From assembly GCA_043798915.1 (NCBI GenBank), contig JAZDOG010000051.1, forward strand, positions 1 to 11,552: a stretch of DNA of 11,552 nucleotides, given 5' to 3'. Under the pieces are notes generated by a model that saw only the letters and a list, made by a program, of their open reading frames with translations, was not told where the DNA came from and did not search any database. Positions 1,871 to 11,551 of this stretch are shown here, one piece after another. How positions within the stretch are numbered: the first letter of the stretch is position 1; each line of letters opens with the position of its first letter. Both the position numbers and the translations under genes were made by a program. This DNA comes from Pseudomonadota bacterium (GTDB lineage: Bacteria; UBA10199; 2-02-FULL-44-16; JAAZCA01).

Positions 1871-2734
1871 TCACTTGAAATATTTTCCAATTATCGGCTT
1901 GAGCCGGATCTTTGCGGTGTCTGGAATCTCCGCGCGGTCGGTGATGATCGCGTCCTTCAGGGCGCTCCTGCAGGGACAGCCCTCTCCGCAGGCAAGGCCG
2001 GGCAGCATCTCGCGGATGACCCCCTGGGCCTTAGCCACGTTCTCCTGCAGAATTCTGATCACCATCGCGACATCCACCGACTCCTCGGAGACGCGCCAGC
2101 AATCGTAGTCGGTGGCGAGCGCAATCGTGGCGTAGCAGATTTCGGCCTCGCGGGCGAGCCTGGCCTCCTGATAATTCGTCATGCCTATCACATCGACGCC
2201 CCACGAGCGGTAGACGTTCGATTCCGCGCGCGAAGAGAACATCGGCCCTTCGATGCAGACGTAGGCGCCGCCGTCGTGCACCTCCACGCCCATCTTCTTC
2301 GCCGCGGCCGCGGCCGCCGTCTTGAGCCTCGCGCACACGGGATCGGCAAAGCTCACGTGGGCGGCGATGCCATCGCCAAAGAAGGTCTGCGTCCGGCCCT
2401 TGGTCATGTCGATGAACTGGTCCACGATGACCAGCTGCCCGGGCTTTATCTTCTCCTTCATGCTGCCCACGGCCGAGACGGAGATTATGTTCGTGACGCC
2501 CAGCTCCTTTAGCGCATAGATGTTCGCGCGATAGTTGATCTCGTGCGGGAGGATTCTATGCCCGCGGCCATGGCGGGGCAGGAAAACGACATCCGTCCCG
2601 CCGAGGCTGCCAAGGACGATGGCATCGGAGGGCTTGCCAAAAGGCGTCTCGACCTGCCTCTCTTCGGTGACGCGCACGCCGCCCATCTGATAGAGCCCGC
2701 TGCCGCCGATTATGCCTGTGAGTTCTCGCGCCAT
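1871..2734 (-). CDS. mtnP: S-methyl-5'-thioadenosine phosphorylase (PNP/MTAP family)
   Basis: GIIGGSGLY, TPFGKPSD, FLPRHGRGH, NYRANIYALK, SAVGSM, EGPMFSSRAES, VIGMT, EARLAREAEICY and ATDYDCW; the DYD motif is typical of 6-aminopurine-specific MTAP. Start placed at ATG 2734 (MARELTGIIGG), preceded by AAAGGCGG. Confidence 0.94.
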   Translation of the reverse strand: MARELTGIIGGSGLYQMGGVRVTEERQVETPFGKPSDAIVLGSLGGTDVVFLPRHGRGHRILPHEINYRANIYALKELGVTNIISVSAVGSMKEKIKPGQLVIVDQFIDMTKGRTQTFFGDGIAAHVSFADPVCARLKTAAAAAAKKMGVEVHDGGAYVCIEGPMFSSRAESNVYRSWGVDVIGMTNYQEARLAREAEICYATIALATDYDCWRVSEESVDVAMVIRILQENVAKAQGVIREMLPGLACGEGCPCRSALKDAIITDRAEIPDTAKIRLKPIIGKYFK

Positions 2735-2806
2735 TAAGCCGCCTTTCGGTCCAAGTGAAACCCGCCGTTTAAAGCATATGAGCCGTCCCTTTTCAAGTGA
2801 TTCCGT

Positions 2807-2835
2807 TTGACCCCCATGGGGGCCTCGTGTATTCA
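2807..2835 (+). promoter_or_regulatory. Candidate sigma70-type promoter for the oxidoreductase/radical SAM cassette, overlapped by a perfect 12-bp palindrome
   Basis: TTGACC (2807-2812), 17-nt spacer, TATTCA (2830-2835), within the divergent intergenic region. Palindrome CCCCCATGGGGG at 2811-2822. The -10 box lacks the conserved final T. Confidence 0.35.
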
Positions 2836-2841
2836 CGCGGC

Positions 2842-3726
2842 GTGAAGAGATGCGATGTGGCTATCATAGGGGCCGGGCCGGCGGGCATTGCGGCTGCAAT
2901 ACAGCTCGCCCGGCAGGGTTTAAGGCCGCATATCCTCGAAAGAGGCGAACCCGGCGGCCTGCTCAGGAACGCGAACCTCGTGGAGAACTATCCCGGGTTT
3001 CCCGGCGGCATCAGCGGACCTGCCCTTGCCGCCCTCTTCCGGAGGCAGCTCTCCGATGCGGGCATACAGATCACCGCAGAGGAAGTGACAGGACTCGATC
3101 ATGACGGCGATGTGTTTGAGATCGAGACAGCATGGGAGTCGTATCGGAGCACGGCGGCCATCGTCGCATCCGGCACGGCGCCGATGGAGTCCAAATCCGT
3201 TCCGATACCCTCCGATGCCGCGGACCGCATCCTCTATGAGGTCTGCCCGATCGCGAACGTCGCGGGCAAAAGGATCGCGATCGTCGGCGCCGGCGACGCG
3301 GCATTTGACTACGCACTGAACCTGGCCAAGCGCAACGAAGTGACAATTCTCAGCAGGGGCAAGGAGACAAAATGCCTGCCGCTGCTCAAAGAACGCGCGC
3401 GGGGCACAGCAGCAATCTCCTATATGGAAAACATGGAAGTTGTGAAAATATCGCGCACACAGGGACAGGGTGAGGGTGACAACGTACTCGCAATAGAATG
3501 CCGCGGTGCCGGAGCGATTTTAGCTGATTATCTCCTGTTCGCAATCGGCCGCGAACCACGGCTGTCTTTTATATCGGAGGGGTTCGCCGGCAGGTCGCGC
3601 GAGCTCGAAGCGGCCGGCCTCCTGCATTTCGCCGGCGACGTAAAGAACGGGAACCTGAGGCAGACGGCCATCGCAACAGGAGATGGAATCAAAGCGGCGA
3701 TGAGGATAGCGCAGGCGCTTGCATGA
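2842..3726 (+). CDS. NAD(P)/FAD-dependent oxidoreductase, thioredoxin-reductase-like fold, lacking CxxC
   Basis: DVAIIGAGPAGIAAA, PGGLLRNANLVENYPGFP, IVASGT, the second Rossmann motif IAIVGAGDAAFDYA, LFAIGREP, FAGDV and RQTAIATGDGIKAA are all TrxB-like. Where TrxB has SACATCDG this protein has ILYEVCPI. Start placed at GTG 2842, just before the first Rossmann strand; the ORF track start of 2797 is possible but less likely. Confidence 0.88.
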   Translation: MKRCDVAIIGAGPAGIAAAIQLARQGLRPHILERGEPGGLLRNANLVENYPGFPGGISGPALAALFRRQLSDAGIQITAEEVTGLDHDGDVFEIETAWESYRSTAAIVASGTAPMESKSVPIPSDAADRILYEVCPIANVAGKRIAIVGAGDAAFDYALNLAKRNEVTILSRGKETKCLPLLKERARGTAAISYMENMEVVKISRTQGQGEGDNVLAIECRGAGAILADYLLFAIGREPRLSFISEGFAGRSRELEAAGLLHFAGDVKNGNLRQTAIATGDGIKAAMRIAQALA

Positions 3727-4676
3727 AAATCATCGCATCCACAGGCAGGGATGACCTCGCGACAGTCTACATCGCTGAGATGGGCGACAGCAGGCGCGTG
3801 GAGTTCGTCGAATCCGTGCAGCCCCCCCTCCCGCGCGAAAAAAAATGGGTGCTGATAATCTCCACCATGTTTGGCTGTCCCGCAGGCTGCCTCATGTGCG
3901 ATGCGGGCGGCGACTATCACGGCACGCTCTCGCGGGAGGAGATCATCTCCCAGATCGACTTTCTCGTGGACAGGCGCTGGGCCGGGAGAAAGGTCCCGTG
4001 CGAGAAATTCAAGATCCAGTTCGCGAGACTCGGCGAGCCGTCGCTCAACCCTGCGGTCCTCGATGTGCTGGAAGAGCTGCCGGACCGTTACAACGCCCCG
4101 GGCCTCATGCCGTCCATATCCACAATCGCACCGGCAGGCGGGGAGGCCTTCTTCGAAAGGCTGCTCTCGATCAAGAGCAGGCTCTACAGCGAAGGCAGGT
4201 TTCAGATGCAGTTTTCATTGCACACGACGGATGAGTCGCTGCGCGGAAAGCTCATGCCCGTGAAGAAATGGAGTTTTGAGAATATCGCCGAATACGGCGA
4301 CAGATTTTATTCGGAGGGCGACCGAAAGATCGCGCTCAACTTTGCATTGGCAAAGGATGCGCCGGTCGAGCCCTGCATCCTTGCAGAATATTTCGATCCG
4401 GCAAAATTCCTTATCAAGATCACTCCGGTCAACCCGACGCACACGGCGGCAAAAAACAACATCTCATCCCTGCTGGACCCGCAGCTTCCAGACGCGGATC
4501 ATCCTCTGGCACGCGATCTCTGCGCCGCGGGTTTTGAAGTCATCGTGAGCCTCGGAGAGACGGAGGAAAACCTGATCGGCAGCAACTGCGGCCAATACCT
4601 GAGAAGGCACATCGAATCGAAGGATTCCATCGAAAACGGCTACACATATGGTTTGAGAATGCTACGCGCCGAATGA
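3723..4676 (+). CDS. RlmN/Cfr-like radical SAM protein of unknown function (atypical class A methylase-like)
   Basis: CxxxCxxC (CPAGCLMC, 3876-3899), LSREEIISQI, FARLGEP (compare MGMGEP), QFSLHTTDESLRGKLMP (compare ISLNATTDEARSQLMP in the adjacent RlmN), ITPVNP and C-terminal IGSNCGQ (compare AACGQL). ATGA overlap with the upstream stop at 3723-3726. Confidence 0.88.
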   Translation: MKIIASTGRDDLATVYIAEMGDSRRVEFVESVQPPLPREKKWVLIISTMFGCPAGCLMCDAGGDYHGTLSREEIISQIDFLVDRRWAGRKVPCEKFKIQFARLGEPSLNPAVLDVLEELPDRYNAPGLMPSISTIAPAGGEAFFERLLSIKSRLYSEGRFQMQFSLHTTDESLRGKLMPVKKWSFENIAEYGDRFYSEGDRKIALNFALAKDAPVEPCILAEYFDPAKFLIKITPVNPTHTAAKNNISSLLDPQLPDADHPLARDLCAAGFEVIVSLGETEENLIGSNCGQYLRRHIESKDSIENGYTYGLRMLRAE

Positions 4677-5687
4677 TGTCGCCAGCTGCCCGCACGCGGC
4701 GAGGATCTCCTGTCCGCGGCTGATCCGGACGTTGGCCTGAACGCCGCGCGACCTCAAGAAATCGCTCCATCGCTCAGAGGTCCCCTCCTCCGGCGCCTTG
4801 AGCCCGCTCCCCTCGAACGGATTGAATGGAATCAGGTTCACCTTCGCGCTGATTCCCTTCAGGAGCTCCACCAGCCTCGCCGCATCGCCGTCGGTGTCGT
4901 TTAAGCCTCCGATGAGGACATATTCAAACGTGATGCGATGGCGCGAGCGCTCCGAATACTTTCTGCATGATTCCATTATCTCTGCGATCGGATATCGGCG
5001 GTTTATCGGCATGAGCTGCGACCTCGCCTCGTCGGTCGTGGCATTCAGGGAGATGGCGATCTTTATGTCGAATTTCTCCGCGAATTTCTCGAGCTGGGGC
5101 AGGAGCCCCGCCGTGGAGAGCGTCAGCCTGCGCTTTGAAAATCCGAACGCGCGGCCGTCGAGCATCACCTCCACCGCGCTTGAAACCGCATCCAGATTCG
5201 CAAGCGGCTCGCCCATGCCCATGAGGACCACGTTGGTCACCGGGTCAGGATGAGCCCTCATCATCAGGGTGAGCTGGCCCAGTATCTCCCCTTGAGTCAG
5301 GTCGCGCACAAAACCCATGCCGGCGGTGCGGCAGAACGAGCAGCCCATGGCGCAGCCCACCTGCGTGGAGACGCACACCGTAGTGCGGCCGGCCCCCGTG
5401 GGCATGTAGACGCACTCGACCGCCCTTCCGTCTTTCGCCCGGCAGAGAAATTTTCTAGTCCCGTCTGAAGCCTCCTGCGTGCCGGCAATTTCCAGCGCGT
5501 CCATGACGAACCTTTCCTTCAGCGCGGACCTGACCGCTTTCGAAATATTGGTCATCTCGTCGAAGGAAGCGACGCGCGTTCTATAGAGCCATTCTATGAG
5601 CTGATCTGCGGCAAAGGCCCTGAGCCCAAACTCCGCGGCAAGGGAGGGAAAGAGGCCGAGCGGGATGTCGGTGATCGCTTCTGGCAT
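4662..5687 (-). CDS. rlmN: Dual-specificity RNA methyltransferase RlmN (23S rRNA m2A2503 / tRNA m2A37)
   Basis: N-terminal accessory domain (QLIEWLY...FDEMTNISKAVR), SDGTRKFL, CVSTQVGCAMGCSFC (resolving Cys plus cluster motif), NVVLMGMGEPLAN, TLSTAG, ITFEYVLIGGLND, VNLIPFNP and RGQEILAACGQL (methyl-carrier Cys). Confidence 0.95.
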   Translation of the reverse strand: MPEAITDIPLGLFPSLAAEFGLRAFAADQLIEWLYRTRVASFDEMTNISKAVRSALKERFVMDALEIAGTQEASDGTRKFLCRAKDGRAVECVYMPTGAGRTTVCVSTQVGCAMGCSFCRTAGMGFVRDLTQGEILGQLTLMMRAHPDPVTNVVLMGMGEPLANLDAVSSAVEVMLDGRAFGFSKRRLTLSTAGLLPQLEKFAEKFDIKIAISLNATTDEARSQLMPINRRYPIAEIMESCRKYSERSRHRITFEYVLIGGLNDTDGDAARLVELLKGISAKVNLIPFNPFEGSGLKAPEEGTSERWSDFLRSRGVQANVRISRGQEILAACGQLATSFGA

Positions 5688-5693
5688 GGCGGG

Positions 5694-6389
5694 TTATCGA
5701 TCGGCAAAGATATCGAGCTTCGGGAGTTCTACCGCCCGGCTGACGGTTATGCAATCCGCCTTGCCCTGCCGCCGGCCGTCCCGGTCGACGAGGATGGGCG
5801 TGAGCCCGGCGGCGCGCGCGCCCATGACGTCTACCTCGAAGAGGTCGCCGACATAGACCGATCCGGACGGCTTCGCCTGCATGATGTCCATCGCATGACT
5901 GAAGATCCGGCGGTCGGGCTTCGAGAAGCCTACCTCGCCGGAATCAATGACGGCGCCGAAGAAGTCCTCCAGCCGCGCGTGCTGGATGAGGCGTTTGATC
6001 TGCCCCTCCGCGTTGGATATGACGCCGAGCTTGAAGCCGCGGCCTCGGAACCAGTCGAGCATCTCCGGGGTCCCCTCATCCATCCGCGACCAGAAGAGAT
6101 GGCTGAAGGGGTGATTGCGCACCGCCTCGGCGATCGGCTTCACCATCTCGTCGTCGATCCCCAGCGAAACGAGCCATCTCCTGTTGATCTCCCACCAGAG
6201 CTCGTCGTGCGTGAGCCGACCCACCAGGCCCTCGTCGACGATCGAGCGCTTGACCGCCTCGTGCTTCACCTCGATCTCGGAGGCTGGCAGAGAGATGGAA
6301 AACCTCTGGGCGAGCAGCTCCTGAAGGAATTCATAGTTGAAGAAGAATAGCGTGTTGCCGATGTCGAAAAAAATCGTGTCGAATTGCAA
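5694..6389 (-). CDS. HAD-superfamily hydrolase/phosphatase (subfamily IA)
   Basis: Motif I FFDIGNTL, motif II GVISN, motif III GFSKPDRRIF and motif IV YVGDLFEVDVMGA. Start placed at TTG 6389 (GGAGGG at 6398-6393), immediately after the upstream stop at 6403; the ORF-track extension to 6617 overlaps the dehydrogenase gene. Confidence 0.9.
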   Translation of the reverse strand: MQFDTIFFDIGNTLFFFNYEFLQELLAQRFSISLPASEIEVKHEAVKRSIVDEGLVGRLTHDELWWEINRRWLVSLGIDDEMVKPIAEAVRNHPFSHLFWSRMDEGTPEMLDWFRGRGFKLGVISNAEGQIKRLIQHARLEDFFGAVIDSGEVGFSKPDRRIFSHAMDIMQAKPSGSVYVGDLFEVDVMGARAAGLTPILVDRDGRRQGKADCITVSRAVELPKLDIFADR

Positions 6390-6402
6390 GTTCCCTCCGT
6401 GA

Positions 6403-7767
6403 TCAGCGGCCGGTAAAATCATCCGCCCAGTTCTCAAGTTCGCCGATTGCGAATGCCACGTCGAGCACCGTGTACCGGCTGCGGATGCACATCGCGAACA
6501 TGATGGCATCACGAAACTCGTCGCGGCCGATGCCAAGTCGTGAATAATGCGCTTTTGCGCCGGCCCGGTCAAGCACGGCGCGGATATACTCCGCAGGCAT
6601 GAGATATGGGGCGACAACCCTTTTTATCCCGCTCCATTCCTTTTTTATACGCTGGACACCCTCCTCAAACGACTTCCTCGTCCCGCGTTTCTTCTCATAT
6701 TCCGACGCGACAGCGCCGCCGGCGCTACCGAAGAGCGACCGGCATTTTGAAAGAGCGACCTCCGACCTCTCCCACGCCGATGCGACGGCCCCCTGATCGA
6801 TATCGCGTTCATCGAGCGAGGCCAGTCTCTCGTAGAGGGCGGCCGTGGCGACGGTCGCCACGCCTACCTGCGCCCCGTGAAAGTCGGGCTCGCGCCCTTC
6901 TGCCAGCGCGCGCATGTCGAGGAAGTGCGAGATGAGGTGTTCCCCTCCCGACGCCGGCGCCGAGCTGCCCGCGATCACCATCGAGACGCCGGAGAAGATG
7001 AGGGCCTCGGCAAGCCCGGCGATCGCGCGAGGGTCGCGCATGCCTATGAGCGAGGCATCGCGGATATAGAGCTTTTCCAGATCGCGCGTGAGTTCGAACG
7101 GCCGCGGACAGAAATGCTCGCCGCGGATCAGGGATGCCAGCTTCCAGTCCGCATTGCAGACCGGCTTCGACATCACGTCGCCGAGCCCGGCCCTGATCAT
7201 ATCGATCGGAGCGCCGGAGAGCAGCCCGGTATCGGCGATCACCGCGATAGCCGGACGCACGGCCTCCGTCGTCTTGAGACCGCCCCTGGTCAGAGCGACG
7301 ATCCCGGAGGCATAGCCGTTCATCGAAGGCGCGGTGGCCACCGCCACCTGCGGCAGGCCATGCGCAAACGCCGCCCACTTGGCGAGATCGGTGACAGTCC
7401 CGGATCCGACCGAGACGACGAGCGCATCGCCGGAATCGACGGCTCCCGCAACGAGTTCTGCGGTCGCGTCATCGGCATGCGGCTTTTTTCCCGGGATTAT
7501 AAACGGGCGCGACTTGAGACCGGCTTTTTCGATCGATCGGGCGACGTCCCGTCCCGCGAGGTCATGCGTCGTTTCATCGGCGACGATGAGCGCCAGGCCG
7601 CTGAGGCCCAGGCTTAAAATGACGTCCCCCGTCTTCCGGAGGGCCCCGTCCTCGATGAGCACGGCGCGCGTGCCGACGGAATGCCTCTGCCCGCACTCGC
7701 AGTCCCAGCTCTGCCCAAGCAGATTCTTTCGTTTGGATGGAATCGTCTCGTCCTTCAATAGCGCCAT
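6403..7767 (-). CDS. egsA: sn-glycerol-1-phosphate dehydrogenase, long bacterial AraM/EgsA type (dehydroquinate-synthase-like / Fe-ADH fold)
   Basis: N-terminal CECGQRH, LIVADETT, NAD-binding SVGSGTVTDLAK, ATAPSMNGYAS, MIRAGLGD, ADWKL, and metal-ligand motifs PASGGEHLISH and HGAQVG; 454 aa. Confidence 0.88.
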   Translation of the reverse strand: MALLKDETIPSKRKNLLGQSWDCECGQRHSVGTRAVLIEDGALRKTGDVILSLGLSGLALIVADETTHDLAGRDVARSIEKAGLKSRPFIIPGKKPHADDATAELVAGAVDSGDALVVSVGSGTVTDLAKWAAFAHGLPQVAVATAPSMNGYASGIVALTRGGLKTTEAVRPAIAVIADTGLLSGAPIDMIRAGLGDVMSKPVCNADWKLASLIRGEHFCPRPFELTRDLEKLYIRDASLIGMRDPRAIAGLAEALIFSGVSMVIAGSSAPASGGEHLISHFLDMRALAEGREPDFHGAQVGVATVATAALYERLASLDERDIDQGAVASAWERSEVALSKCRSLFGSAGGAVASEYEKKRGTRKSFEEGVQRIKKEWSGIKRVVAPYLMPAEYIRAVLDRAGAKAHYSRLGIGRDEFRDAIMFAMCIRSRYTVLDVAFAIGELENWADDFTGR

Positions 7768-7768
7768 G

Positions 7769-9115
7769 TCAGGCGGTCTTTGGCTTGGCCTTCCACATGA
7801 GCAAGGTCAAGAGCCCGCCGGCAAGCGCGCAGATGGCCCAGAACTTCGCGCCGCCTCCCCATCCCCATCTGTCGACGACCACGCCGGTTCCGGCGCTCGA
7901 CAATACGGCGCCCACATAGCCGAAGAGGCCGATGAAGCCCGTCGCGGATGCGGCCATTCGTTTCGACCCGAAGTCGACGCTCGCGACTCCAGCGATGAGA
8001 AGCTGCGGTCCATACGTGAAAAAACCTATGAGGCCCATCATGGTGAAATCGAGCACGGGGTGCCCGGGAGGGATCTTATAAAAGATGCAGATGCACGCCG
8101 CCAGCAGAAACATGCAGATGGCGGAAGCCGGACCGCGCCGGGCAGCGAAGAGCTTGTCGGAAACCCAGCCGGCGATGATCATGCCCAGAATTCCGACGAG
8201 GGGATTGGCTGCCGACATAAGCGCGCCCATCGAATCCGTATTGCCCTTCAGTTCCACCATGAGCTTTGGCGCCCAGTCATCGGCGCCAAAACGAACCACG
8301 TAGACGAATATGTTTATAAAAGCGCAGAGCCATATCCATTTATTAAAAAGCACCTTATGCAAAAAAGCCTGCCAGTAATGATGTTCATACTCCTCCTCTT
8401 CATGATCCTCCTCCGTATAATCGATATCCTTTTCCTTGTCGTATTTTTCGACCGGTGGAAGCCCCATCGCCTCAGGGCGGTCGCGCATGCGATTGTAGAG
8501 GAAGATGGAGGCCACAAAGCCGATAAATGCGGGGACGAAAAAACATGACCTCCATGAAAACTTGAGGATCAGCGCCGCGGTCAGGACGCGCACGAGCAGG
8601 GTGCCAACCTGATGCGCCGTCGACCACACGCCCCATATGCGGCCGCGCTCGTTGACGTTGAACCATTGCGCGAGCGCCCTGGCGTAGGGGGGATTGCCCA
8701 TCGATTGAAACCACCCGTTGAGCCCCCAGATAAACGCGAGCATGAAGAGGCTCGTGGCGTATCCGAAGAGCACGGAACAGACGACCGATCCGAACATGCC
8801 GATCACCGAGAAGTAACGAATATTGGCCCGATCCGCCAGCACGCCGTTGACGAATTTGCCAACGCCGTAGCTGATATAGAGCGCTGCGCCCAGGATGCCC
8901 AGCTGGGTGTTCGAGTAACCCAGATCGCGGCTCATCGCGGGCAACACCGTCGAGATATTCTTGCGCATCAGATAGAAAACGGCATAGCCGACGAAAGAGG
9001 CGTAACAGGTCCTCCAGCGCCAGTAACGGTACATCGACGCGACTTTTTGGGGATCGGTGATTTTCTCCGCCGCGGCGGGCGGCATCCTGAGTTCGGCCCA
9101 GATGCGCTTGAACAT
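7769..9115 (-). CDS. MFS transporter, organophosphate:Pi antiporter (OPA; GlpT/UhpT/UhpC/PgtP) family
   Basis: Multiple hydrophobic helices; YRYWRWR, FYLMRKN, YGVGKF, NGWFQSMG, ERGRIWGVWSTAHQVG, RDRPEAMGLPPVE, YVVRFG, GWVSDKLF..RRGP, YGPQLLI and ATGFIGLFGY. Purine-rich SD GAGGGGGGAG upstream of ATG 9115. Confidence 0.93.
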   Translation of the reverse strand: MFKRIWAELRMPPAAAEKITDPQKVASMYRYWRWRTCYASFVGYAVFYLMRKNISTVLPAMSRDLGYSNTQLGILGAALYISYGVGKFVNGVLADRANIRYFSVIGMFGSVVCSVLFGYATSLFMLAFIWGLNGWFQSMGNPPYARALAQWFNVNERGRIWGVWSTAHQVGTLLVRVLTAALILKFSWRSCFFVPAFIGFVASIFLYNRMRDRPEAMGLPPVEKYDKEKDIDYTEEDHEEEEYEHHYWQAFLHKVLFNKWIWLCAFINIFVYVVRFGADDWAPKLMVELKGNTDSMGALMSAANPLVGILGMIIAGWVSDKLFAARRGPASAICMFLLAACICIFYKIPPGHPVLDFTMMGLIGFFTYGPQLLIAGVASVDFGSKRMAASATGFIGLFGYVGAVLSSAGTGVVVDRWGWGGGAKFWAICALAGGLLTLLMWKAKPKTA

Positions 9116-9223: not shown

Positions 9224-11551
9224 CTACCTGCCTGTCACTGGCGGGCGCCGCATCTTCTTCCAATAATCGCCTGATTCCGTGACCTTCCCCACGAAGCCTT
9301 TGACTTTTTCAGGAGAGTCCGGAACAGGCCCTATGCCGTTCATCAAAATGAACTCGAACCAGTCCCGATGTTCTCTCCCGGTTTTCAGGAACCGCTCGGG
9401 GCGGTTTTTGTTTGCGTACATCGCCGCCGATCCCATGGCGAGCGCCTGTTCAACCACGGTGGCGTCGTCAAACGAAGTGGATTTTTTTTCGCCTTTGGAC
9501 CATCCCTCGAGCCTGTGTTTGGCCTCGGCGATGACTGCGCTGACTTTATTGTCCACATCTTCGGCCTGAGCAGCGGTGAGCTTGTCGCTGGCATAAAACT
9601 CCGCCAACGTCTTGTATGCGCCAGGGATCGGTTCAAACGGAGATTCGCCGTTGCGAGGACTGCCCGTCGCCCAGTCGATCGGCTCGTGCCAGTGCCAGGC
9701 CGAGGGCCCGCCGTGCCAGACTTTCGCAGCCACGTGGTGCTCAAGAAATCCTTCCAGATCTCCCGCGGCGGCTTTCGCGTATTTTTTCCTCCAGAATCCC
9801 TTCGAGGCATAGTGGGGATACCATTTGGTCACGAGCGGATCCAGAGTGTCGCGCCCCAGGGCGCGATCGAGAAACGTTGCCAATGGAGTGTCCCAGCCAG
9901 ACTTGAGTTTCACGAGGTTTCTAAGCGGCAGCGTCGTGAGCGAACGGACGAACGTCGACATTCCTATATTATAGCCATCTCCATCGAGAATATATCGATT
10001 GCCACCCCGAAAACCGTCCCATGCGGTTCCGATCAGCACGTCGTGGATGATGCAGTGCGCTAGCCAGCCTTTCCAGTTGGGTTTGACGCCAATCTTCATG
10101 GACTTGACCGAATGCTGTGCGAACACCTCTGAAAATGAACCACCCTCCCTCTCTATCATGCGCGCGATGACTTTCTTTTCCCATGGGGTCAATGCATTCT
10201 TCGACAGCAAGCCCCCCAGATATTCCTTTTCCTGAGGGGTCAATGGGAAGCCATTCTTCGATATCACATGCTTGACATTCTCCCTTTCCGCAGCGGTCAA
10301 TTTATCCCTCGATCGAAGGGCTTTCGCCTCCTCGCGGGTCAATGCTTTCCTCTTTACCAGGCGTCCAAGGGCCTCCTTTTCCGGAGGGGTCAATGCCTTC
10401 CTCTTTGCCAGGCGCGCAAAAAATTCCTTTTCCTCAGGGGTCGAAATGCCGCCCCTCCGCAGCAAACCCTTGACTGCATCCATTTCCCCAGCGGTCAATT
10501 TATCCCCCGATCGAAGGGCTGTCATTTCCGCAGGGGTCAATGCATCCATCGATGCCATGCGCGCACCAGCCTTCTTTTTTCCCCCGGCGGCCAGTACAGC
10601 CCTCGACACCAGGCGCTTTAAAGCCTGCCTTTCCTCAGCGGTCGGCTCGGCCCTCGATACCAGGCGCGCAGCGACCTTTTCTTTTCCTTCAGCGGCCAAT
10701 GCATCCCTCCACAGGACGCGCTCAAATATCCGCTTTTCCTCAGCAACGGCCAATGGATCAACCGATATAAGGCGCGAAAAAGCCTCCTGCTCCTCGGAGG
10801 TCAATGTCGCCACGACCCTCGCCTTCCTCACACTCCCTTCAACAACCCTTTTATATCCATCGCGGCCCTTCTTGAACTGGACGCCGACAAGCACCCGCCC
10901 CTCCCGGTCAAGGACCGTCACGTTCTCGTAATTTGCCCCCTGCATCAGCTTCCGCAGAAGGGATCTGTCCGGCCCGGTAAAATGCTCGAGCGCCAATTTC
11001 TCCGTCTCCCTTTGCCCCATCTTGAGGCCGATGGACTTGACCATGGCCTGTCCACGGAGCTTCGAAAGCCCATCGCGCAGCAAACGCCCGCGCCACTGAC
11101 CCAGGATCGACCCGGTGCCGTAGTTCGCCGCAAGGCGGTACATGTCGATCTCTTTAAGATCCTGGCCGCTCAGAAGCTGGGGGATGGCATCAGCGGCGCG
11201 GTCGAGGATGACCAGCATGCGCTGCCCGCCCTGATCCAGGCCTATTTTATAAGCGACGCGATTCATCGCGAACATCAGGGCGACCCCGCCCGCCCATGAC
11301 AGCGGCGGCTTATCATCCTTGTGTTCCCTGAACAACAGCTCCGCCCCGACATAAGGAACGCTTATCCTCTCGGCGTGTCTTATGATCGCATTTATAAATG
11401 TCAAAAGACCAAAACCCTTCCTCCAGCTTTGAAATTTGAGCGACCCATCCTCTGCTGCCCTCATTCCATGAATGATCAACTGACGGATCCAGAATGATTG
11501 CTTGAGTTCCGCTTCCGAAAGACGAGCTCCACCGGTGCCGAAGAGGAACCG
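9224..11551 (-). CDS. Large hypothetical protein (at least 775 aa, 5' end outside the window) with an internal degenerate helical repeat region
   Basis: The frame has no stop from the right edge (RFLFGTGGARLSEAELKQSFWIRQLIIHG...) to TAG at 9226-9224, so the ORF-track TTG start at 11479 is probably not the true start. Internal repeats all have lengths that are multiples of 3. No family recognised. Confidence 0.8.
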   Translation of the reverse strand, partial: RFLFGTGGARLSEAELKQSFWIRQLIIHGMRAAEDGSLKFQSWRKGFGLLTFINAIIRHAERISVPYVGAELLFREHKDDKPPLSWAGGVALMFAMNRVAYKIGLDQGGQRMLVILDRAADAIPQLLSGQDLKEIDMYRLAANYGTGSILGQWRGRLLRDGLSKLRGQAMVKSIGLKMGQRETEKLALEHFTGPDRSLLRKLMQGANYENVTVLDREGRVLVGVQFKKGRDGYKRVVEGSVRKARVVATLTSEEQEAFSRLISVDPLAVAEEKRIFERVLWRDALAAEGKEKVAARLVSRAEPTAEERQALKRLVSRAVLAAGGKKKAGARMASMDALTPAEMTALRSGDKLTAGEMDAVKGLLRRGGISTPEEKEFFARLAKRKALTPPEKEALGRLVKRKALTREEAKALRSRDKLTAAERENVKHVISKNGFPLTPQEKEYLGGLLSKNALTPWEKKVIARMIEREGGSFSEVFAQHSVKSMKIGVKPNWKGWLAHCIIHDVLIGTAWDGFRGGNRYILDGDGYNIGMSTFVRSLTTLPLRNLVKLKSGWDTPLATFLDRALGRDTLDPLVTKWYPHYASKGFWRKKYAKAAAGDLEGFLEHHVAAKVWHGGPSAWHWHEPIDWATGSPRNGESPFEPIPGAYKTLAEFYASDKLTAAQAEDVDNKVSAVIAEAKHRLEGWSKGEKKSTSFDDATVVEQALAMGSAAMYANKNRPERFLKTGREHRDWFEFILMNGIGPVPDSPEKVKGFVGKVTESGDYWKKMRRPPVTGR
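10145..10804 (-). repeat. Intragenic degenerate tandem repeat, about 13 units of 14-19 aa (42-57 nt), consensus LT(P/A)xE(K/R)xxhxRLhx(R/K)xA
   Basis: Recurrent plus-strand GG(T/C)CAAT core. Near-identical DNA pairs: 10291-10322 vs 10489-10520 (31/32, offset 198), 10336-10363 vs 10387-10414 (26/28, offset 51), 10599-10616 vs 10650-10667 (17/18, offset 51). Confidence 0.9.

Follow-up and report, generated by a model that had tools for sequence, protein, structure and literature searches.

Results

Organization of the locus

The window analyzed here, an 11.5-kb contig of 11,552 nt (JAZDOG010000051.1 in the assembly GCA_043798915.1 of a Pseudomonadota bacterium), is densely packed with genes, which were placed by family scans. 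This work concerns two of these genes, which form a pair on the plus strand. The first gene, here denoted FL (2842-3726), starts with GTG and encodes a 294-amino acid (aa) flavoprotein that binds flavin adenine dinucleotide (FAD) and NAD(P) and has the fold of the low-Mr thioredoxin reductases (TrxRs) without their redox-active CxxC. The second gene, RS (3723-4676), encodes a 317-aa radical S-adenosylmethionine (SAM) enzyme with the RlmN/Cfr fold and without the RlmN N-terminal domain. FL and RS are the only two credible genes on the plus strand, all other recognizable genes being located on the minus strand; the only further plus-strand open reading frame (ORF) kept by a greedy gene call (5895-6350) has no family match. 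In this respect, and in the arrangement of the gene ends, an earlier reading of this DNA made from the sequence alone (hereafter, the original prediction) was accurate: the ATGA overlap between the two genes, the divergent intergenic region upstream of them and the 15-nt overlap with rlmN downstream are all present as described.

The ATG of RS (3723-3725) and the TGA of FL (3724-3726) share the ATGA stop/start overlap at 3723-3726, which suggests translational coupling. The GTG at 2842 is most likely the start of FL, because the N-terminus that it yields, MKRCDVAIIGAGPAG, fits the N-terminus typical of the family, MKxxxVxIIGAGPAG. On the minus strand, mtnP starts with an ATG at 2734 (N-terminus MARELTGIIGGSG), so that the divergent spacer between mtnP and FL comprises 107 nt (2735-2841). 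This spacer is the presumed site of the promoter of the pair; a scan of positions 2500-5000 for sigma-70 promoters and terminators gave no site in the spacer, with counts near chance. At the other end of the pair, RS ends at 4676 and the rlmN ORF extends from 4662 on the opposite strand, the two convergent 3' ends overlapping by 15 nt (4662-4676).

The window also encodes canonical counterparts of both proteins on the minus strand, namely trxB (3-896, truncated at the edge of the window, with the canonical CATC) and rlmN (4662-5687; 380 bits with TIGR00048, against a cut-off of 290). In pairwise alignments, identity is 30% between FL and TrxB and 24% between RS and RlmN; therefore, as anticipated, the pair did not arise by recent local duplication of trxB and rlmN.

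Conservation of the FL-RS pair

To characterize the pairing, FL was sought by tblastn in the 80 best RS genome loci (54-65% identity to RS) of at least 587. In 78 of these 80 loci, the gene immediately before RS, in the same orientation, is a homolog of FL, and the remaining two loci start inside RS at a contig edge. Among the 71 pairs for which both ORFs were called, the genes overlap by 4 nt in 41 and by 1 nt in 7 more, so that 48 of the 71 overlap in all. Moreover, the two proteins are found as one polypeptide: FL-RS fusions account for 3 of the 13 long homologs scanned (P0130, P0142 and P0173), and all 8 RS homologs longer than 555 aa that were found carry pyridine-nucleotide-disulfide-oxidoreductase domains, that is, are FL-RS fusions. 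The neighborhood comparison thus strongly supports the view that FL and RS make up one conserved functional unit, in line with the coupled module initially proposed. The explanation that unrelated genes are merely packed together here can draw on the dense packing of the window and on nothing more; it is refuted by the adjacency of FL in 78 of 78 testable loci across many phyla and by the fusions, and its probability is next to nil. A predicted complex of RS and FL, made from alignments of 29 rows each (score 0.00, mark 0.32), was used neither for nor against a contact. In one locus (L009, 7202-7986), the match to FL is divided between two frames, an indication of a frameshift or assembly error; in L027, L031, L061 and L068, FL was seen by tblastn and the ORF caller returned no intact FL ORF.

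The original prediction further dwelt on the ties of the pair to the rlmN, trxB and mtnP genes of the window. These contacts are local accidents, as none of the three genes is tied to the pair in other genomes. No rlmN match above 30% identity was found in the 80 loci, and because rlmN is not near RS in these loci, the overlap of the RS and rlmN ends can be ascribed to local packing.

The RS family is large, with 5918 homologous clusters (at 90% identity) of similar length, and is carried by at least 587 species-level genomes; an exhaustive search for RS gave 106 representatives at E ≤ 1e-30. The 80 best loci come from many bacterial phyla, many candidate phyla and five archaeal bins, Chloroflexota contributing 46 of the 78 rows of the RS tree, and include that of Fervidobacterium thailandense (Thermotogota; L076), a cultured organism with a complete genome that carries the FL-RS pair. 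RS is strongly conserved, showing 54-65% identity between bacterial and archaeal bins. The tree of these 78 rows, a quick LG+G4 reconstruction that gave warnings on joined long branches and in which bins may hold foreign contigs, mixes phyla and domains, with Thermoplasmata placed next to Syntrophobacterales and a Methanobacteriota bin next to Fervidobacterium. In this tree, one Phycisphaerae bin and two bins of archaea form a group with the window RS (94% support in the Shimodaira-Hasegawa-like approximate likelihood ratio test, SH-aLRT). Given this mixture of phyla and domains, the horizontal movement suggested in the original prediction is plausible for the family as a whole. For the window, however, there is no compositional sign of recent transfer: the GC content at third codon positions (GC3) of the pair, 0.69 and 0.74, falls within the range of its neighbors (0.67-0.85), and a recent insertion is therefore not indicated.

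An isochorismatase-family hydrolase as the third partner

When the ORFs from all loci were clustered, 55 loci proved to share a third family, whose members have about 221 aa. They are isochorismatase-family proteins (PF00857, about 1e-40) in which the motifs of the Asp, Lys and Cys catalytic triad are conserved. Of the 68 cases with 650 nt or more of sequence before FL, 59 have the hydrolase gene as the immediate upstream neighbor of FL by tblastn, and a partial copy is found at the contig edge in 5 further loci. The 9 cases without an adjacent hydrolase gene are the window itself and L007, L015, L034, L055, L061, L068, L070 and L076; in L061, L068 and L076 an isochorismatase gene is present elsewhere in the locus. 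The hydrolase is also fused to RS, in 5 of the 13 long homologs scanned and in a 58-member protein-atlas cluster of the same architecture. The usual unit is hydrolase-FL-RS, and the window holds a two-gene minority form; the earlier idea of a cassette self-contained as two genes has to be abandoned.

With the isochorismatase-like cysteine hydrolases, such as YecD/PRK11440, RutB, BiuH and PncA, the operon hydrolase shares PF00857 and the D-K-C motifs. It scores, however, below all NCBIfam cut-offs, including those of YecD (66.9 bits against 195 for PRK11440) and RutB (60.9 against 378), and the protein atlas names it generically as an amidase.

FL is a thioredoxin reductase-like flavoprotein without conserved cysteines

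FL matches Pyr_redox_2/3 in Pfam and falls below the TIGR01292 cut-off (141.9 bits against 343.45). Both dinucleotide-binding motifs are present, the FAD-binding GxGxxG in the form GAGPAG (2869-2886; residues 10-15, with G10, G12 and G15 invariant in 29 homologs) and the second as GAGDAA. In the pairwise alignment with the window TrxB, the CATC of the latter corresponds to CPIA in FL (3244-3255). Among 73 homologs, the column of the first CxxC cysteine is variable, the commonest residue being Y (40%), and no Cys is conserved at any position; the description of FL as CxxC-less is fully confirmed.

The original prediction had likened FL to the YumC-type ferredoxin/flavodoxin-NADP+ reductases, a kinship that the comparisons do not bear out. 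The best PDB sequence match of FL is the TrxR 2q7v (1.4e-27), whereas chains of TrxR-type ferredoxin-NADP reductases (FNRs) match at 1e-14 to 1e-6. A structural model of FL (predicted local distance difference test score, pLDDT, of 93.8) has the TrxR 5mh4 as its top fold match, with a template modeling (TM) score of 0.82, and TM scores to TrxRs reach 0.84; all 39 rows of fold matches shown are TrxR or AhpF, and no FNR is among them. Judged by sequence and by the modeled fold, FL is nearer to true TrxRs than to YumC-type reductases. In the model, FL ends directly after the final helix of the FAD domain; a C-terminal extension or subdomain covering the flavin is typical of TrxR-type FNRs.

The fold, both dinucleotide-binding motifs and the VENYPGFP and RQxxxAxGxG-type motifs are common to FL and TrxB. 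FL differs from TrxB in that it has neither the CxxC nor any other conserved Cys, in that the NADPH-binding arginines are only partly kept and in its partner, which is a radical SAM enzyme instead of thioredoxin. With the YumC-type reductases (3ab1, 3lzw and 2zbw), which are used for one-electron transfer, FL shares a TrxR fold without CxxC, although in sequence they are farther from it (1e-14 to 1e-6) than the TrxRs are (1e-27). The characterized TrxR-fold proteins that lack CxxC, that is, the TrxR-type FNRs, are electron-transfer enzymes, and by analogy FL most likely works like the TrxR-type ferredoxin/flavodoxin-NADP+ reductases.

RS has the RlmN/Cfr fold and lacks hallmarks of an RNA methyltransferase

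In RS, the CX3CX2C motif that binds the [4Fe-4S] cluster is intact (CPAGCLMC, 3876-3899; C52, C56 and C59, invariant in the homolog alignments), and the GEP SAM motif is present. Toward the C-terminus, NCGQ (4584-4595) contains C289, which is invariant in 29 homologs, and in the alignment falls on the C-terminal loop that holds the catalytic cysteine of RlmN (ACGQ in the copy of this window); this Cys presumably corresponds to the methyl carrier, C355 in the numbering of Escherichia coli RlmN. The Cys that precedes the cluster motif of the window RlmN by seven residues is replaced by Ile in RS, and by I, L, V, M or A in the other 18 sequences of an alignment of RS with a QueT-fused clade described below. 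We take this upstream Cys to be the second catalytic cysteine, C118 in E. coli RlmN, a residue named in the PDB titles "C118A RlmN" among the fold matches of RS. The original prediction had called both proteins of the pair cysteine-deficient; this is correct for FL and half correct for RS, which has no upstream catalytic Cys but keeps C52, C56, C59 and C289.

The scores of RS with the RlmN/Cfr family models are 15-39 bits against cut-offs of 290-633 (39.2 against 290 for TIGR00048, and 29-32 against 468-550 for the Cfr models), and the match to Pfam Radical_SAM, at 16.7 bits, is also under its cut-off. The alignment to TIGR00048 begins at about model position 79, and a family scan found no RlmN_N domain (PF21016) in RS, whereas the window RlmN has it at 1.3e-12. 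The structural model of RS has a pLDDT of 86.4, falling to 54-67 in residues 281-317 around C289, which would be compatible with a mobile loop. Fold searches returned an RlmN homolog (6fz6, 5e-13), E. coli RlmN (5hr6, 2e-12) and Cfr (5e-8) with TM scores of 0.59-0.69, all families other than RlmN/Cfr being at 3e-4 or worse. Hence, RS shares with the RlmN/Cfr enzymes (3rfa, 5hr6, 9p0p and 6fz6) the fold, CX3CX2C, GEP and the invariant C-terminal Cys-Gly-Gln, and differs from them in the absence of the RlmN_N domain and of the second catalytic Cys, in its acidic character (median isoelectric point, pI, of 5.56 over 78 homologs) and in having an obligate flavoprotein partner and a hydrolase partner.

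These likenesses could be taken to mean that RS is a second RNA methyltransferase, an RlmN/Cfr paralog that acts on rRNA or tRNA and is recycled by FL. RlmN and Cfr are its best matches by both fold and profile, the JGI pipelines name RS homologs 23S rRNA (adenine2503-C2)-methyltransferase, and some phage relatives of RS are found among tRNA genes. Set against this are the model scores, far under every cut-off, and the tight link and fusions to an amidohydrolase, which point elsewhere. Because RS lacks the RNA-binding N-terminal domain and the upstream catalytic Cys, is acidic, occurs in archaeal bins and has a canonical rlmN in the same window, an RNA enzyme is unlikely, and a second methyltransferase recycled by FL is a distinctly improbable reading of the pair. 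Homologs of RS currently go under "radical SAM protein", "hypothetical protein" or an automatically transferred rlmN label, the last of which is wrong. No model in Pfam, NCBIfam, PHROGs or PADLOC names RS or the operon, PADLOC gave no defense-system match for RS or the hydrolase, and the protein atlas has RS in unnamed "radical SAM" clusters only.

A sister clade fused to QueT

Proteins of a sister clade of RS (28-31% identity, E values of 1e-25 to 1e-28) carry a fused QueT transporter domain, and the protein atlas contains a 65-member cluster with the QueT-RS-like architecture. In P0259, P0378, P0379 and P0391 (about 810 aa) and in P0237 (586 aa), a single polypeptide comprises QueT, an RS-like domain and a nucleosidase of the methylthioadenosine/S-adenosylhomocysteine (MTA/SAH) type. 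Such a polypeptide resembles a complete route of import and salvage on one chain, possibly for queuosine. The fusions to QueT and a nucleosidase suggest small-molecule, possibly nucleobase-like, substrates. The QueT-fused proteins seen have no FL domain. The C-terminal Cys-Gly pair is kept in all 17 sequences of the RS/QueT-clade alignment that reach this region, the QueT-fused clade included, and its presence is therefore no proof of methyl transfer.

A known enzyme close to this clade in its setting is QueL, the queuine lyase of Clostridioides difficile, described in the literature as a radical SAM or "radical" enzyme that converts queuine to preQ1 (PMC11570991, PMC12632869, PMC11130926). 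QueL acts on a free modified base, and its gene lies beside genes for an energy-coupling factor (ECF) S-component and a nucleoside hydrolase (PMC11570991, PMC12632869 and PMC9210968), queK, the ECF S-component gene and queL being consecutive in a table of C. difficile genes (PMC9210968). By analogy, the QueT-fused clade may be QueL-like. The 120 best matches of a profile search with the clade included no C. difficile protein with a name, a cluster look-up of 10 of its proteins gave no useful names, and a plasmid search with P0261 found nothing.

It could be argued from these fusions, and from the chemistry and gene order described for QueL, that RS is itself a QueL-type radical lyase salvaging a 7-deazapurine or another modified nucleobase, with FL and the hydrolase as add-ons for a different imported conjugate. 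The likeness of RS to QueL, however, runs through the sister clade fused to QueT and the nucleosidase, which is only a candidate equivalent of QueL, and identity between the two clades is only about 30%. The RS loci carry FL and an isochorismatase gene where QueL has QueT and QueK; neither QueT nor a nucleoside hydrolase is encoded among the 150 scanned neighbor proteins of the 80 RS loci, or in the window. Furthermore, the pair occurs in archaeal bins, and archaea, to our knowledge, do not make queuosine. We regard a QueL-type role of RS as doubtful.

Wider neighborhood and relatives on phages and plasmids

The neighbor survey covered 150 proteins of the 175 cluster representatives (at least 90 aa) obtained from 261 neighbors. 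No fourth conserved partner emerged among these 150 proteins or among same-strand neighbors less than 40 nt apart, and the neighbors are heterogeneous. Several associations occur on a smaller scale. A gene of the XdhC family, for insertion of the molybdenum cofactor, follows RS at 8-34 nt in seven Anaerolineales-type loci that belong to one clade of the RS tree (L060, L067, L073, L074, L077, L078 and L080), and MobA-like genes are found near RS in two scanned loci (L003 and L013). In L045 (10-1059) and L063 (4951-6414), which are related to each other, the hydrolase gene comes immediately after a same-strand gene of the MttB family (trimethylamine-methyltransferase-like), the two genes overlapping by 4 nt or lying 10 nt apart. 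The gene directly before the hydrolase in a Dehalococcoidia locus (L051, 1452-2267) encodes a pterin-binding, methyltetrahydrofolate methyltransferase-like protein, and in L079 RS is followed by a formyltransferase-like gene and a gene for the corrinoid activase RACo. These neighbors give a sparse hint of a link to one-carbon (C1) or methylamine metabolism. A PfkB-family kinase gene and a HAD hydrolase gene near an archaeal locus (L071) were considered as orthologs of those in the window and rejected, the matches being 26% identity over half the length and no significant match.

Relatives of RS with 25-35% identity occur in 23 phage records, as phrog_24834, to which no function is assigned there. 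The phage hosts are very diverse, Moorella, Bacteroides, Stenotrophomonas, Salmonella, Vibrio and Pectobacterium being among them, and the two phage contexts viewed (L081, 5833-6840; L082, 5884-6843) were uninformative. A plasmid search for RS gave two weak matches, one of which is a plasmid-borne rlmN. The other, on a 267-kb Subdoligranulum variabile plasmid record (L083, 4806-5789), is a gene for a 327-aa radical SAM protein, 26% identical to RS, and is flanked by genes for a relaxase and a serine recombinase.

Other genes of the window

The remaining genes, all on the minus strand, were assigned by family scans. Between trxB and mtnP lies a PfkB-family kinase gene (940-1890), which overlaps mtnP by 20 nt (1871-1890) and whose best NCBIfam matches, far under the cut-offs, include ribose-1-phosphate and nucleoside kinases. 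Beyond rlmN, a HAD hydrolase gene (5694-6617) bears a weak resemblance to ribulose-1,5-bisphosphate phosphatase in NCBIfam. From their family matches, mtnP, the PfkB kinase and the HAD hydrolase may form a nucleoside or MTA salvage set. The next gene, at 6403-7767, is glycerol-1-phosphate-dehydrogenase-like (200.8 bits with NF002022, under its cut-off of 413; 2.9e-59) and stands between the HAD gene and a gene for a GlpT/UhpC-like sugar-phosphate transporter of the major facilitator superfamily (7769-9115). An enzyme for an archaeal-type lipid backbone in a bacterium, on a contig that also has bacterial-type rlmN and trxB, deserves attention. The window closes with a 751-aa ORF (9224-11479), maybe open to the window end as 775 aa, whose product is basic (pI 9.8) and has no match in Pfam, NCBIfam or PADLOC.

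Discussion

From the gene coupling, the fusions, the folds and the pattern of motifs present and absent, a model can be proposed for where the electrons come from and in which direction they flow, for the kind of substrate and for the chemistry. We propose that FL and RS belong to a conserved multi-component system in which FL, fed by NAD(P)H, would supply electrons to RS, a putative small-molecule radical SAM enzyme, and we put the probability of this reading at roughly 0.5. FL and RS would work as one unit, as separate, translationally coupled subunits in the window and as a single polypeptide in some organisms. FL would bind FAD, take two electrons from a pyridine nucleotide and, having lost the CxxC relay, hand them singly to RS. 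The first electron would reduce the [4Fe-4S] cluster for SAM cleavage, and the second would quench the product radical or regenerate C289. RS would act on a small molecule and not on rRNA; this metabolite probably contains nitrogen, being nucleobase-like or bearing an amide, and the reaction would be a bond cleavage or a carbon methylation. The hydrolase would remove or open an amide of this metabolite, either ahead of RS or after it.

Radical SAM enzymes need one-electron reduction for each SAM cleaved. The assignment of FL as the built-in reductase of RS rests on the loss of its dithiol relay and retention of its nucleotide-binding domains, from the electron-transfer function of its CxxC-less relatives and from the strict coupling and fusion of the two genes. 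Eukaryotic TYW1, in which a flavodoxin domain is fused to a radical SAM domain, offers a precedent for such a built-in entry of flavin electrons. The flavodoxin domain of TYW1, however, binds flavin mononucleotide and needs an external reductase, whereas FL, as a two-domain FAD/NAD(P) protein, could use pyridine nucleotide directly. That FL reduces the cluster of RS or an adduct on it, as the original prediction had it, is likewise a proposal.

The same coupling can be read in another way, with the reduced flavin of FL as a chemical partner that passes hydride to an intermediate generated by RS, which might be a C289-S-CH2-substrate adduct or an exocyclic methylene, or an imine or enone formed after bond cleavage. 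RlmN resolves its Cys-S-CH2-substrate intermediate with the second cysteine, and throughout the RS clade the methyl-carrier-type Cys (CGQ) is present without a resolving Cys, while FL is coupled to RS as strictly as a subunit would be. Flavins are also known to reduce exocyclic methylene intermediates in ThyX and TrmFO. On the other hand, we know of no TrxR-fold protein that reduces carbon centers, and the QueT-fused clade, probably of lyases, keeps the Cys without an FL domain, so that this Cys need not mean methyl transfer. Hydride transfer by FL is thus possible but rather unlikely.

Several observations weigh against the proposal that FL feeds NAD(P)H electrons to RS. The NADPH-binding HRRDELRA of the window TrxB corresponds to LSRGKETK in FL and to ILNRxxxxK in the consensus of the FL family; the electron donor is therefore uncertain. 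The target of FL could also be the substrate, or an intermediate bound to a Cys, and not the cluster. No isochorismatase-family hydrolase gene is present in the 11.5-kb window, where mtnP stands divergently upstream of FL instead, so that in this organism the hydrolase must be encoded elsewhere or be dispensable. The flanking genes of the RS loci give no consistent pathway, and an Rfam scan of the window and 8 loci detected no RNA family and no riboswitch. Finally, the co-occurrence figures come from 80 loci, the best of at least 587, and were taken from the side of RS.

Both proteins are of known kinds, a radical SAM enzyme of the class A fold and a flavoprotein of the TrxR fold, but their partnership is undescribed and the system has no name. 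In the full-text literature searched, which did not take in subscription papers or closed supplements, no paper was found that joins an RlmN-like protein with an isochorismatase, or a radical SAM protein with an isochorismatase and either a TrxR-like protein or a pyridine nucleotide-disulfide oxidoreductase. The recurrent fusions point out three components of the system, and as the cultured Fervidobacterium thailandense, with its complete genome, carries the pair, the question is directly testable.

The in vivo source of electrons is known for few radical SAM enzymes, and usually consists of shared pools of flavodoxin or ferredoxin. A dedicated and sometimes fused pyridine-nucleotide flavoprotein would, if confirmed, represent a different solution, with turnover in vitro without dithionite. 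If RS and its relatives are small-molecule enzymes, the RlmN/Cfr fold would be extended beyond RNA methylation. A more far-reaching version, which we consider unlikely, is a self-sufficient radical SAM system fed directly by NAD(P)H, with a cysteine-less TrxR as the reductase subunit of a class A-fold enzyme that has moved from RNA to a small molecule. In its boldest form, C289 would carry a methyl-cysteine, a free heterocycle would be methylated on carbon, and electrons or hydride from the flavin would replace the resolving cysteine. If this is true, class A radical SAM chemistry would have a third branch, present in hundreds of anaerobic bacterial and archaeal lineages.

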